From Candidatus Nanohaloarchaea archaeon (lineage in GTDB: Archaea > Nanohalarchaeota > Nanosalinia > Nanosalinales > Nanosalinaceae), in the NCBI GenBank assembly GCA_041640075.1, contig JBEQAY010000003.1, forward strand, positions 1 through 57,186: a stretch of 57,186 nucleotides of DNA. Reading direction: 5' to 3'. This document shows, one piece after another, positions 46,549 through 56,654 of this stretch. The notes beneath the pieces were generated by a model, which worked only from the letters and a program-made list of their open reading frames with translations, had not been told where the DNA came from and did not search any database. A program made the position numbers and the translations under genes. Numbering within the stretch: position 1 is the first letter of the stretch; every line of letters starts with the position of its first letter.

Positions 46549-47991
46549 TCAGTACTCTCTTTCCTTCATGTAGTCCGCAAGGAGTTCAAGGTTCTCAGTT
46601 CCTCCTGGTATCTCTGCTTCCTCAAGGTGATGGATAGCTTTCTCGATCTTCTCCTCGTAGTGGTCTGAGGCTGTCTCGTGCTTGTAGATCGCGTCGGCAA
46701 CCTCTGTAAGCTGGTCATCAGTAATATCTTCTCTACCATAGAATCCTTCTATCAATGCCTTTTGATATTCAAGATCTCTCTTGTGATTCTGTAGAACTTC
46801 TGCTCTTTGATCATCTAATTCAAGCACGTCTGATTCTACTTCATCAAGTTTCTCCTCGATATTGTTGTATGCCGTGAGAACGGGTAGAGTTGTTTTTCCG
46901 TTGTAGATATCGGTTGCTTCCTTTCCAAGATCTTCGTCCTCGGCTTCACCGTTTTCTGTGTAGCTTGAGACGCTTCTGATCTCGTTGATATCGTCCCTGA
47001 TCTGGAAAGGGATACCCATGTTTCTGGCAAATCTTCTGAGGTGATCTCTCTGTTCTTCTGAAGCGTTGGCTGCTGTAGCCCCCATATCGACAGATGCAAC
47101 ATAGAGATCCACAGTCTTCTTATCAATCATGTCAACGTAGAGATCTTCAGCAGTATCAGAATCTCCTATAAGGAAGTCCGTGTATGGCTGGTCTTCTCCC
47201 TCGAAAAGCTTGTTGAGGTCGATGTGTTCCATGCTGAGATCTCTTACCTGACCCTGGATAATCCTGTCACCAGCTCCAATAAGCGTTCTCGCCATCTCAT
47301 TCTTTTTCTCGGCTGTGAAGCCGGAGTCAAGTATCATCTGGTGAGCGAACTCTCGGAGATCGTTTCCTTCATGCATCGCAATGTTTACACCGTGTCGCTC
47401 TGCTTCTTCGCCTTCGAGTCCTCTCCCTTCGGCTTTCTCTTTTTCAGAGACCCATCCTGTCGGAACAAGTCTCCTGACTTCGTCCCAGTCGTTGATATCG
47501 TCGTGGAAAAGCGTAAAATTATGGTACAGTTCCACTGAAAGCGATACCTCTTCAAGTTCCTCCTGATATTTTTCTCCCGGAGTTATGTCTCTCTGTTCTG
47601 CGTCCTGCAGTGCATCTTCGTTCAAAATTTCGCCCCATTCTGCGTCTTCTTCGACAGTTGATCTCCCTACCTCTCGGGTTGAGAATGGTCTTAGTCTTTT
47701 CGGTCCTTTATCGGATCTTGGGACTGTGAACCTGTTCATCTCCTCTACAACTTCTCTCTCAGGTTTGTGGGAGTTAAGCTGGACGTTTTCATCTTCAGCA
47801 AGGTCAAGCTCTGGAGAAATACCTCCACCACCAGTCAAACGTGCTTTCAGCTCGTCGAAAGCCTCGTCAAGATCATCGTTGATCCTGGCTCTCTCCGGCG
47901 CAAGAACGTCTGCATCGAAGTCACGGCTTTCGATTTCAGTTTCACGATTCCTTTCTGCTGAGATAGTATTTCCCCTCCCGACGTACACCAA
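46549..47991 (-). CDS. Polyprenyl (GGPP-type) diphosphate synthase with insertions
   Basis: KRLRP, HNFTLFHDDIND..RR, KKT and FQIRDD. Confidence 0.85.
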   Translation of the reverse strand: MVYVGRGNTISAERNRETEIESRDFDADVLAPERARINDDLDEAFDELKARLTGGGGISPELDLAEDENVQLNSHKPEREVVEEMNRFTVPRSDKGPKRLRPFSTREVGRSTVEEDAEWGEILNEDALQDAEQRDITPGEKYQEELEEVSLSVELYHNFTLFHDDINDWDEVRRLVPTGWVSEKEKAEGRGLEGEEAERHGVNIAMHEGNDLREFAHQMILDSGFTAEKKNEMARTLIGAGDRIIQGQVRDLSMEHIDLNKLFEGEDQPYTDFLIGDSDTAEDLYVDMIDKKTVDLYVASVDMGATAANASEEQRDHLRRFARNMGIPFQIRDDINEIRSVSSYTENGEAEDEDLGKEATDIYNGKTTLPVLTAYNNIEEKLDEVESDVLELDDQRAEVLQNHKRDLEYQKALIEGFYGREDITDDQLTEVADAIYKHETASDHYEEKIEKAIHHLEEAEIPGGTENLELLADYMKEREY

Positions 47992-54311: not shown

Positions 54312-54818
54312 ATGAAGGCGCCAATATGTAACGTATGTTTAAAGAGCGATGTTCTCTGTAGCAGCTGTGAGGAGAAGCTGGAGAACGGAGAGATAACGGA
54401 ACTCGAAATCAAAGTATCAAGAATACTGAAAGATCTCAGCAACGAGTACGGCTCACTGCGAGACTCAGAGATCAAACACGTCTACGACACGGAGAACGTA
54501 CTTGTCATCGTCACCGCTGAAGGAGACGGTGCAAAAGTCGTAGGACGTGGTGGAGAAATCGTCAAGGAGATTGCAGATAGAGTCGACAAAAGCATCAGAG
54601 TGGTCGAGGCTTCTCAGGACGACAGAGAAGTTATCAAAGGATTATTGAGTCCTGCAGAGATCGAGTCAATCAATACTGTTTTCAAGCCGGATGGACAGAG
54701 CCAGAAAGTGGTTGTTTCAGACGAGTACGAAGGTAAGATCAATCTTTCCATCGAGGAACTTGAACAGCTGATCAGCGATATCACCGGCAGCGATTACGGG
54801 ATCGCCTTCGAGGAATAG
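54312..54818 (+). CDS. Archaeal NusA-like KH-domain protein with N-terminal Zn motif
   Basis: PICNVCLKSDVLCSSC; KH motif VVGRGG. Confidence 0.85.
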   Translation: MKAPICNVCLKSDVLCSSCEEKLENGEITELEIKVSRILKDLSNEYGSLRDSEIKHVYDTENVLVIVTAEGDGAKVVGRGGEIVKEIADRVDKSIRVVEASQDDREVIKGLLSPAEIESINTVFKPDGQSQKVVVSDEYEGKINLSIEELEQLISDITGSDYGIAFEE

Positions 54819-54863
54819 AACTCTCCTGTCCATTTATAACTATCTTCTTTTCTATTTTCAGCT

Positions 54864-56654
54864 ATGAGTACTGGAAAAAACGCAAAGAACTTTATCGTGG
54901 CGATCGACCAGGAGAAGATCGAACCAGACCTGGCGAAGGAGACTGTTATCAAGTATGATCCTTTGAACCGTTCAGGCAAGGAAGGCGGATTCTACCTGAC
55001 AGATGAAGGAGAACTACACATTGACAATGACCAAGTGATGGAGGCCCACAAGATGGCCATCAACAAGTACCCCTACGACAACGCGATACAGCTGATCCGC
55101 ATGGACCGAGAGTTCGGTGAAAAAATCCACCAGTTCGGGGAAAACGCATTCAGACTTTACGGCCTGCCGGCTCCACAGGAAGGTAGAGTGGTAGGCATAC
55201 TTGGAAGGAACGGTATAGGAAAATCCACTGCTTTGAAGATTCTCTCTGGAGATATAAAGCCGAACCTTGGTCAATTCAGTGGAGAACCAGGATGGGACGA
55301 AATACTTGAAAAATACAGAGGTACAGAGCTACAGGACCACTTCAACCAGTTGAAGGGAGGAAATGTTGACGCAGCATTCAAGCCTCAGCAGGTGGACAAG
55401 ATACCGGAGTTGCACGACGGCAAAGTAAAGACACTGCTTGAGAAAAAAGACGAAAGAAACGCCATGCAGGAAGTGGCCGAGAAACTTGATATAGACAAGC
55501 TTCTTGACCGGGAACTGGACGAGCTCTCCGGAGGAGAACTACAGCGAGTGGCTATAGCTGCTACGCTTGTAAAAGATGCTTCACTATATGTAATAGACGA
55601 ACCATCATCCTTCCTGGATGTGAAGCAGCGTTTGAACACAGCTGAACTGGTATCAGATCTAGGAAATGACAGACAGGTTCTTGTAGTAGAGCACGACCTT
55701 GCAACACTTGACCTAGTGTCCTCCTCAACCCATGTCTTCCACGGAGAACCAGGAGCATATGGAATGGTTTCAAACTCTTTCTCAACGCGTCAGGGGATCA
55801 ACCAGTACCTTGAAGGATACCTGAAATCTCATAATCTGCGTATAAGAGATGATTCCATAAGTTTTGACCGGACAAAGAGAAGTCAGGTGGAGAACAAGCC
55901 AGTAGTCCTTGACTATCCAGAATTCGTGAAGAGCTTTGGGAAAGACGAGTTCTCGATGAAATCCAAAGCCGGCAAACTCCATGAAGAGGAGATACTGGGG
56001 ATACTCGGAGAAAACGGTGTAGGTAAGACAACCTTCGCAAAGATGCTTGCAGGAGCACTTGAGACAGATGAAGGAGAATCTCCAGACGCCTCTATCAGCT
56101 ACAAGCCGCAGTACCTCGAGGCTCAAGATGAGAAAGTTGAAACTGCGTTGCGGAACTACGTTAACCCGAAGAGCAAGAAGTTCAAGACCCGTATAGCAGA
56201 GCCTCTCGAACTTGAAGAACTTTACGAGCAGAACCTGAAAGAGCTTTCCGGTGGAGAACTACAGCGAGTGGGTATAGCGATCTGTCTGGCACGTGACGCC
56301 GACGTCTATCTTCTGGACGAACCTTCTGCGTACCTGGATGTCGAGTCAAGGGTTGAACTCGGTAAGACTTTGAAGAGGTTCGCAAGAAAGACCGAGAAAC
56401 CGCTGATGGTAATCGATCACGACCTGCTGCTTATGGACTACATCGCAGACCGCGCCATGATCTTTACAGGCGAACCAGGTGAAGAAGGAACAGCTACAGA
56501 ACCTATGAAGATCGGAGAAGCCATGAACACATTCCTTAAAGAAGTTGACCTGACCTTCCGGAAAGACCCGGACACAGGAAGGCCTCGCGCAAACAAGCCT
56601 GGCTCACAGAAAGACCAGAAACAGAGAAAGAAAGACGAGTTCTACGAACAGTAA
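54864..56654 (+). CDS. rli: ABCE1/RLI ribosome recycling ATPase, Cys-free N-terminal domain
   Basis: FGENAFRLYGLP, GRNGIGKST, two LSGGELQR signatures, GENGVGKTT and TFRKDPDTGRPRANK. Confidence 0.93.
   Translation: MSTGKNAKNFIVAIDQEKIEPDLAKETVIKYDPLNRSGKEGGFYLTDEGELHIDNDQVMEAHKMAINKYPYDNAIQLIRMDREFGEKIHQFGENAFRLYGLPAPQEGRVVGILGRNGIGKSTALKILSGDIKPNLGQFSGEPGWDEILEKYRGTELQDHFNQLKGGNVDAAFKPQQVDKIPELHDGKVKTLLEKKDERNAMQEVAEKLDIDKLLDRELDELSGGELQRVAIAATLVKDASLYVIDEPSSFLDVKQRLNTAELVSDLGNDRQVLVVEHDLATLDLVSSSTHVFHGEPGAYGMVSNSFSTRQGINQYLEGYLKSHNLRIRDDSISFDRTKRSQVENKPVVLDYPEFVKSFGKDEFSMKSKAGKLHEEEILGILGENGVGKTTFAKMLAGALETDEGESPDASISYKPQYLEAQDEKVETALRNYVNPKSKKFKTRIAEPLELEELYEQNLKELSGGELQRVGIAICLARDADVYLLDEPSAYLDVESRVELGKTLKRFARKTEKPLMVIDHDLLLMDYIADRAMIFTGEPGEEGTATEPMKIGEAMNTFLKEVDLTFRKDPDTGRPRANKPGSQKDQKQRKKDEFYEQ

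Follow-up and report, generated by a model that had tools for sequence, protein, structure and literature searches.

Judged from its sequence, the ABCE1/RLI protein encoded in the window (the whole 57,186-nucleotide stretch of DNA analysed here) is an ABCE1 orthologue that lacks one defining feature of its family, the eight-cysteine head. With its ATPase motifs intact and a head predicted to adopt a ferredoxin-like fold, this ABCE1 probably splits ribosomes as a cofactor-free mechanical wedge, and would then work without a cofactor thought to be indispensable. The absence of cysteine from all eight cluster-ligand positions makes it an orthologue by descent, a variant rather than a canonical member. 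The features on which the argument rests are the following.

54864..56654, + strand: ABCE1/RLI gene with head, twin ATPase domains and hinge, 596 amino acids plus stop
54885..55109, + strand: cysteine-free head domain, residues 8-82, with a predicted ferredoxin-like fold
54918..54947, + strand: former ligands C1, C2 and C3, now I19, A24 and V28, from the alignment register
54957..54974, + strand: D32-P33-L34-N35-R36-S37, with D32 at ligand C4 and matches to the uS12 contacts
55035..55070, + strand: former ligands C5, C6, C7 and C8, now V58, H62, A65 and Y69, from the alignment
55203..55226, + strand: Walker A of NBD1, residues 114-121, a sequence motif
56283..56285, + strand: C474, the sole cysteine of the protein, in NBD2 after the signature motif, from the translation
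54312..54818, + strand: NusA-like KH-domain gene (PF13184), the upstream neighbour

An earlier note, made from the sequence alone, had named the protein ABCE1/RLI, and the RLI family model (NF009945) agrees, with 725.9 bits against a cut-off of 469 over profile positions 4-589 of 592. The sequence alignment with P. abyssi 3BK7 (E 7e-164) spans residues 10-594, two ABC_tran stretches are recognised by Pfam, and the single chain carries two ATPase domains with Walker A and B motifs, LSGGE signatures, Q-loops and H-loops. Besides the Walker A of NBD1, intact motifs lie at 382 (Walker A), 221 and 461 (LSGGE), 243-247 and 483-487 (Walker B), and 277 and 519 (H-loops). The helix-loop-helix insertion and the hinge regions were recognised from the 3BK7 alignment and from the predicted structure compared with 6TMF, an archaeal post-splitting structure with S. 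solfataricus ABCE1. The open frame comprises 604 amino acids, and the 8 codons lying 5' of the 596-amino-acid start are too few to conceal a cysteine-bearing head. In run X1 (perhaps the source sample itself), one contig spans positions 54367-55411 with 0 differences to the window. The KH gene shares a locus with ABCE1 in 37 of the 41 loci with room for it (within 400 nucleotides in 26 of the 41), and this conserved neighbour marks the window ABCE1 as the gene of the native locus. A search for related loci that used this one protein as query returned none. Elsewhere in the window (46549-47991, - strand), a 480-amino-acid ORF between gatA and gatB-like genes has DDxxD-like motifs, which we take to be typical of polyprenyl synthetases.

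The ligand register was set via the 6TMF sequence and a one-cluster intermediate. According to the ligand table in the available part of PMC13255074, one cluster is bound by C1, C2, C3 and C8 and the second by C4-C7; the corresponding residues of human ABCE1 are C16-C21-C25-C65 and C29-C55-C58-C61. The eight positions read I19, A24, V28, D32, V58, H62, A65 and Y69 in the window protein, with cysteine at 0/8; the ABCE1-type site (C1, C2, C3, C8) is now wholly hydrophobic, and the ferredoxin-type site (C4-C7) retains one Asp and one His. The earlier observation of a head devoid of cysteine and a single cysteine in the whole protein (C474) holds, and the landmarks it relied on are located at residues 13-21 (AIDQEKIEP), 31-38 (YDPLNRSG) and 66-75 (INKYPYDNAI). 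At the 0.61% cysteine of this genome, a stretch of 80 amino acids has a 61% chance of containing none, so that the absence says little by itself and its weight comes from the comparison within the family. Canonical alignment rows have cysteine in all eight ligand columns, and a profile search over 1.84 billion representatives found at least eight head cysteines in 122 of the 150 best-scoring ones. The available text of PMC6088178 likewise describes the eight cysteines as a conserved feature of ABCE1. Since ordinary sense codons occupy the former ligand positions in 36/36 relatives, an artefact of the genetic code could be ruled out. Taken alone, the head has no Pfam match and no significant sequence match in the PDB, and the CxxCxxCxxxCP motif of 2[4Fe-4S] ferredoxins (Fer4) is absent from it.

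Across 35 cysteine-free heads, the invariant residues are Q16, D32, P33, L34, N35, G42, F43, L51, I53, V58, H62 and P70. D32 and H62 are the only invariant candidate ligands at the old cluster sites, M59, E60 and H52 being variable, and the pair is also constant across all 28 heads of the head-tree set that carry Asp and His at these positions (D/H heads). Asp and His are common metal ligands. The placing of D32 and H62 exactly at two former ligand positions in 35/35 cysteine-free heads, together with the constancy of M59 in 68/68 rows of the full-length alignment, would suit a non-cysteine metal site completed by water, backbone or a variable neighbour, in which case the head would be cluster-free without being metal-free. 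We regard such a site as unlikely: a tight structural site would usually need more than two ligands, the remaining site positions are V58 and A65/I/V/S, and M59, E60 and H52 vary in the wider head set. As for the ribosome-facing surface, the contacts of the S. solfataricus head to uS12 and the rRNA helices h5 and h44 were taken from the available part of PMC7196836; the uS12 contacts P25, R28 and S29 are retained as P33, R36 and S37, and the rRNA contacts K15, N17, E19, K59 and N70 are changed to L23, K25, T27, N67 and R79, respectively.

The head is under purifying selection and is the most conserved part of ABCE1. Among 36 genes of the source organism's family, f1 (630 pairs), it is 79% identical with a pN/pS of 0.14, compared with 65% and 0.30 for one ATPase domain and 70% and 0.25 for the other; pS being near saturation, it is the ranking of the head against the ATPase domains that can be safely read from these values. 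A full-length AlphaFold model built from 68 cysteine-free sequences has a pLDDT of 89.7 (84-94 in the head) and superposes on 6TMF over residues 9-595 with Z 45.6 and an rmsd of 3.4 A for 573 aligned residues (Foldseek TMq 0.86). A head-only model from 35 cysteine-free sequences reaches a pLDDT of 95.1, and the top 11 rows of its Foldseek search are ABCE1 heads, 6TMF matching with TMq 0.79, rmsd 1.9 A and E 0.01, within a weak range of E-values (0.006-0.07). When the head was submitted to a wide fold search, ferredoxin domains were returned, the best with Z 8.6 and an rmsd of 1.8 A over 68 aligned residues; this search, which uses whole-chain representatives, lists no ABCE1 chain. A profile of cysteine-free heads matched a canonical haloarchaeal head at 99.2% in hhalign, and the ESM Atlas gave no usable match. 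Taken together, the models predict that the cysteine-free head keeps the ferredoxin-like fold of ABCE1, in line with the cluster-free ferredoxin-like domain proposed in the earlier note, with the reservation that the predictor's training included cluster-bound ABCE1, from which the fold may simply have been carried over.

The source genome (G000; 0.98 Mb, 89% complete) has one ABCE1 match, and the window ABCE1 is the cell's only detected copy: neither a second nor a canonical one was found there, PF04068 gave no match in that genome, and no RLI (PF04068) or Fer4 (PF00037) domain was found elsewhere in it. Together with the short upstream frame, this rules out a hidden upstream or separate cysteine-bearing head. 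Of the 70 genomes of the phylum, 56 gave an ABCE1 match: NF009945 detected 55, and protein search added one partial gene. Heads were read in 47 of the 56, and 45/47 are cysteine-free, comprising 37/38 in family f1 and 8/8 in family f5. The two exceptions are G036, with five cysteines, and G001 of family f2, with a canonical head. All eight single-contig f1 genomes carry one ABCE1 copy, which is cysteine-free, and the 120 listed of 142 matches are all devoid of cysteine in the first 85 residues. Named homologues are labelled Nanohaloarchaea.

One could suppose that the cysteines were lost along with Fe-S biogenesis, as the earlier note had suggested for a reduced symbiont, or that the function is carried out by a canonical copy elsewhere; the small genome, the lack of a detected Fer4 domain and the 11% of marker genes missing would fit either idea. 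The Suf genes contradict the first: G000 encodes SufB and SufD, a NifU_N/SufU protein with its cysteines, an adjoining SufC-like ABC ATPase and, beside the SufU and SufC-like genes, a SufS-like gene (Aminotran_5). Fe-S clients in the same genome have kept their ligands, namely Elp3 (CxxxCxxC), an XPD-type DEAD_2 helicase (four cysteines) and a 2Fe-2S ferredoxin (Fer2). SufBD is matched in 47/49 other f1 genomes and in 6/8 f5 genomes, and no SufBD match was found in G001, the sole genome with a canonical head among the 47 heads read. As the Suf genes and intact clients are present, loss of the pathway does not explain the cysteine-free head, and with the single cysteine-free copy of the eight single-contig genomes arguing against a hidden one, both suppositions appear highly improbable. 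We also noted in G000 an HhH-GPD endonuclease III-like protein (G000:C50:774-1487, L167:175-888, - strand) with no more than three cysteines (C206, C217, C221) in its C-terminal motif, so that its cluster may be altered or lost. The XPD-type helicase (G000:C8:22042-24113, L165:5043-7114, - strand) is split into two ORFs by a stretch of N that probably marks a gap in the assembly.

The expectation that similar variants exist in other halophiles was borne out. Many records whose titles name cultured Halobacteria (among them Haloferax, Haloarcula and Natrinema) contain a cysteine-free gene of f5 type, and f5 proteins are also found under Asbonarchaeaceae titles. Among the 120 matches listed in the halobacterial search, the first 85 residues contain no cysteine in 118 and a single one in two. 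The cysteine-free gene is a second copy beside a nine-cysteine gene in 5/5 halobacterial genomes tested, and two Thermoplasmatales-titled genomes also hold two copies each, with one canonical head cut by a contig end. An even sample yielded 14 of 401 Halobacteria-class genomes (centre genome included) that score like the cysteine-free head; part of the 14 were read, and two of them have short open frames. The halobacterial accessory copies group with f5 (99/94). The gene lies on eight plasmid records, in surroundings that are varied and partly mobile in the three that were read; the Natrinema plasmids NZ_CP084882.1 and NZ_CP084474.1 have two cysteine-free head matches each, and one copy on the former adjoins an integrase and a transposase. 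Several neighbours recur, each in 3-9 of 34 loci that include non-independent kin (DUF2249, CGCGG, cupin, Usp, SdhB-like, 2-oxoacid oxidoreductase and ferredoxin), which hints at an island linked to stress or anoxia. The one motif tested, a promoter motif from PMC11218638, was found upstream of 0/30 accessory ABCE1 genes, and RLI is not mentioned in the text of that paper or in one of its supplements; a denitrification link is accordingly unsupported. Their presence in cultured Halobacteria makes tests of the cysteine-free copies possible without the hard-to-grow symbiont.

In the sister family f4, ABCE1 was found in 0/10 genomes (G003-G012, 80-93% complete) by NF009945, PF04068 or protein search, the last returning generic ABC ATPases only (best E 3.5e-16). 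The neighbouring KH gene is present in 10/10 and aRF1/Pelota in 9/10, and other genes follow the neighbour gene in all ten loci (L169, L171, L172, L174-L180). There being no closed f4 genome, ABCE1 is described here as not found in this family rather than as absent. HflX was likewise not found in the ten f4 genomes; the search found it in 0/17 genomes, G000 among them; if f4 truly has neither ABCE1 nor HflX, ribosome recycling must go another way there. A strong SufBD match was seen in one of the ten genomes, and in G007, G008 and G006 the aRF1-like match lies in frames of about 940 amino acids, compared with about 410-420 elsewhere, possibly by fusion or insertion. A family without detectable ABCE1 suggests that this lineage may depend on the protein less than has been assumed, and it is a point in favour of a reduced or shifted function of the cysteine-free protein, e.g. 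in 30S anti-association or hibernation, with canonical recycling dispensable in the lineage. The halobacterial genomes that hold the cysteine-free gene beside a canonical one would also allow a different role, and some of the rRNA contacts differ. The ATPase motifs are nonetheless all intact, no part of the protein is more conserved than the head, the positions in contact with uS12 are retained and the search for another splitter, HflX, found none, all of which render a shifted function quite improbable.

As to the origin of the cysteine-free head, the profile search uncovered a spectrum of heads: some are cysteine-free, some keep C1, C2, C3 and C8 with D at C4 and H at C6 (the D/H one-cluster type), and four have C4-C7 only. 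These four (P0172, P0234, P0242 and P0258), which are devoid of C1, C2, C3 and C8, are the mirror image of the D/H type. The D/H type makes up the 15 top matches among 301 genomes sampled from the phylum of a Woesearchaeota-titled genome, another DPANN phylum, in which ABCE1 was matched in 268/301 and none of the 30 heads read is cysteine-free; this tally includes two unpublished genomes, G721 and G722. Four small Halobacteria-class genomes of about 2 Mb (G388, G082, G344 and G105; L220-L223) have this head too, on their single ABCE1, the body of which is sister to the nanohaloarchaeal f1 clade (100/98); the matches in G105 and G344 contain one stop each. The five-cysteine, one-cluster head of G036 (L024:1486-3264), likewise of D/H type, stands at the native locus. 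Its body nests inside f1 (98/93), yet the AU test does not reject a cysteine-free f1 clade (p 0.325). G036 is a candidate for a surviving ancestor of f1, and a head swap in place is possible.

In the tree of the ATPase body (42 rows, 511 columns), a single clade of D/H types is rejected (p-AU 2e-62). In the head tree computed without the eight ligand columns (41 rows and only 61 columns), by comparison, the D/H heads form one clade (97/93), within which the cysteine-free heads form one clade (100/99) with G036 outside it. The trees omit 19 representatives in which the cut motif was not found, as well as L204. The disagreement of the two trees suggests that heads were swapped between ABCE1 bodies, and the one-cluster heads of other archaea suggest a two-step cluster loss. 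We thus infer that the ferredoxin-type cluster would have been lost first and that heads would have been exchanged between bodies. Alternatively, convergence around the lost ligands could mimic a single head origin. We considered whether f1 and f5 lost the second cluster independently, since the replacements differ (IAV/Y versus VVA/I) and the one-cluster bodies are sister to f1; this is disfavoured by the joint clade of cysteine-free heads, and one origin is preferred. Separately, the heads L207, L212, L210, P0144, L199, L200 and L211 lack the D/H signature and have partly or fully lost the ferredoxin-type ligands, which suggests that this cluster also eroded separately.

In canonical ABCE1, closure of the ATP sites presses the head onto the A-site factor and splits the subunits, and after splitting the head parks between h44, h5/h15 and uS12 (PMC7196836 and PMC13255074, in their available parts). 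For the window protein, we propose that the hydrophobic side chains I19, A24, V28 and Y69 would fill the ABCE1-type site, and that V58, A65 and the invariant D32/H62 pair, probably hydrogen-bonding, would fill the ferredoxin-type site. ATP-driven closure of both ATPase sites would then push the cysteine-free head against aRF1/aPelota, after which it may dock at h44/uS12 as canonical ABCE1 does. Against a cofactor-free protein counts the yeast enzyme, which needs 7 of its 8 cysteines if the cell is to be viable, according to the available text of PMC13255074. In its favour, that of PMC3442406 terms the FeS domain structural and reports that oxidants cut the cluster supply to Rli1, a dependence proposed there as a main reason why oxidants stop growth. 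As selective driver, the most likely candidate is independence from a cluster supply that is sensitive to oxidants or limited by iron, and adaptation to oxidative stress, also raised in the earlier note, is plausible as a candidate cause of the cysteine loss. A broader picture, in which Archaea reached a fully functional cofactor-free ABCE1 in two steps, with an exchangeable head, an accessory gene that spreads into free-living haloarchaea because it keeps recycling going under cluster damage or scarcity, and a family f4 without ABCE1, is conceivable, and we offer it tentatively, as rather doubtful in its entirety.

A description of a cysteine-free ABCE1 was not found in the literature searched; most subscription papers and preprint supplements lie beyond the text search, and a prior mention is possible. 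In the preprint 10.64898/2026.06.17.729505, the terms ABCE1, RLI, cysteine and Fe-S do not occur, and in the available text of PMC6514570 nanohaloarchaea and ABCE1 both appear, mentioned separately. In the available parts of PMC13255074 and PMC6088178, ABCE1 is described as a protein that archaea and eukaryotes cannot do without, and one whose folding and function depend on the clusters. Heads with two clusters, with one and with none exist in nature, so that head swaps offer a direct test of scaffold versus sensor, and an air-stable ABCE1 would ease the biochemistry of ribosome recycling.

Among known systems, canonical ABCE1/Rli1/RLI (3BK7, 6TMF, yeast Rli1, human ABCE1; NF009945) resembles the window protein in length, twin ATPase motifs, hinge, predicted head fold and uS12 contact positions, and differs in its eight cluster ligands, none of which is found in the window protein. 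Cysteine-free (C-) paralogues of zinc-ribbon ribosomal proteins offer another parallel, a metal-free translation component being kept beside the metal-binding one. Halobacteria likewise hold both types of ABCE1, although the paralogues concern zinc rather than Fe-S, and the one motif tested gave no sign of a shared regulator upstream of the accessory ABCE1 genes. Rpo3/Rpb3/AC40 of RNA polymerase, some members of which have no cluster at all, was among the matches of the cysteine-free head in the wide fold search (2pa8_D, 7eu0_C and 4c2m_C). It too is a ferredoxin-like domain in an information-processing machine, with a cluster number that varies by lineage (available part of PMC5300874), yet it is another protein, and for ABCE1 the clusters have been described as essential. 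A further comparison is with the engineered C58A variant of yeast Rli1, which is viable with a [3Fe-4S] cluster according to the available text of PMC3442406: a ferredoxin-type ligand is dispensable there, at the same position that H62 occupies in the window protein. In C58A one ligand is lost and both clusters remain, whereas the window protein is natural and conserved, with all eight ligands gone.
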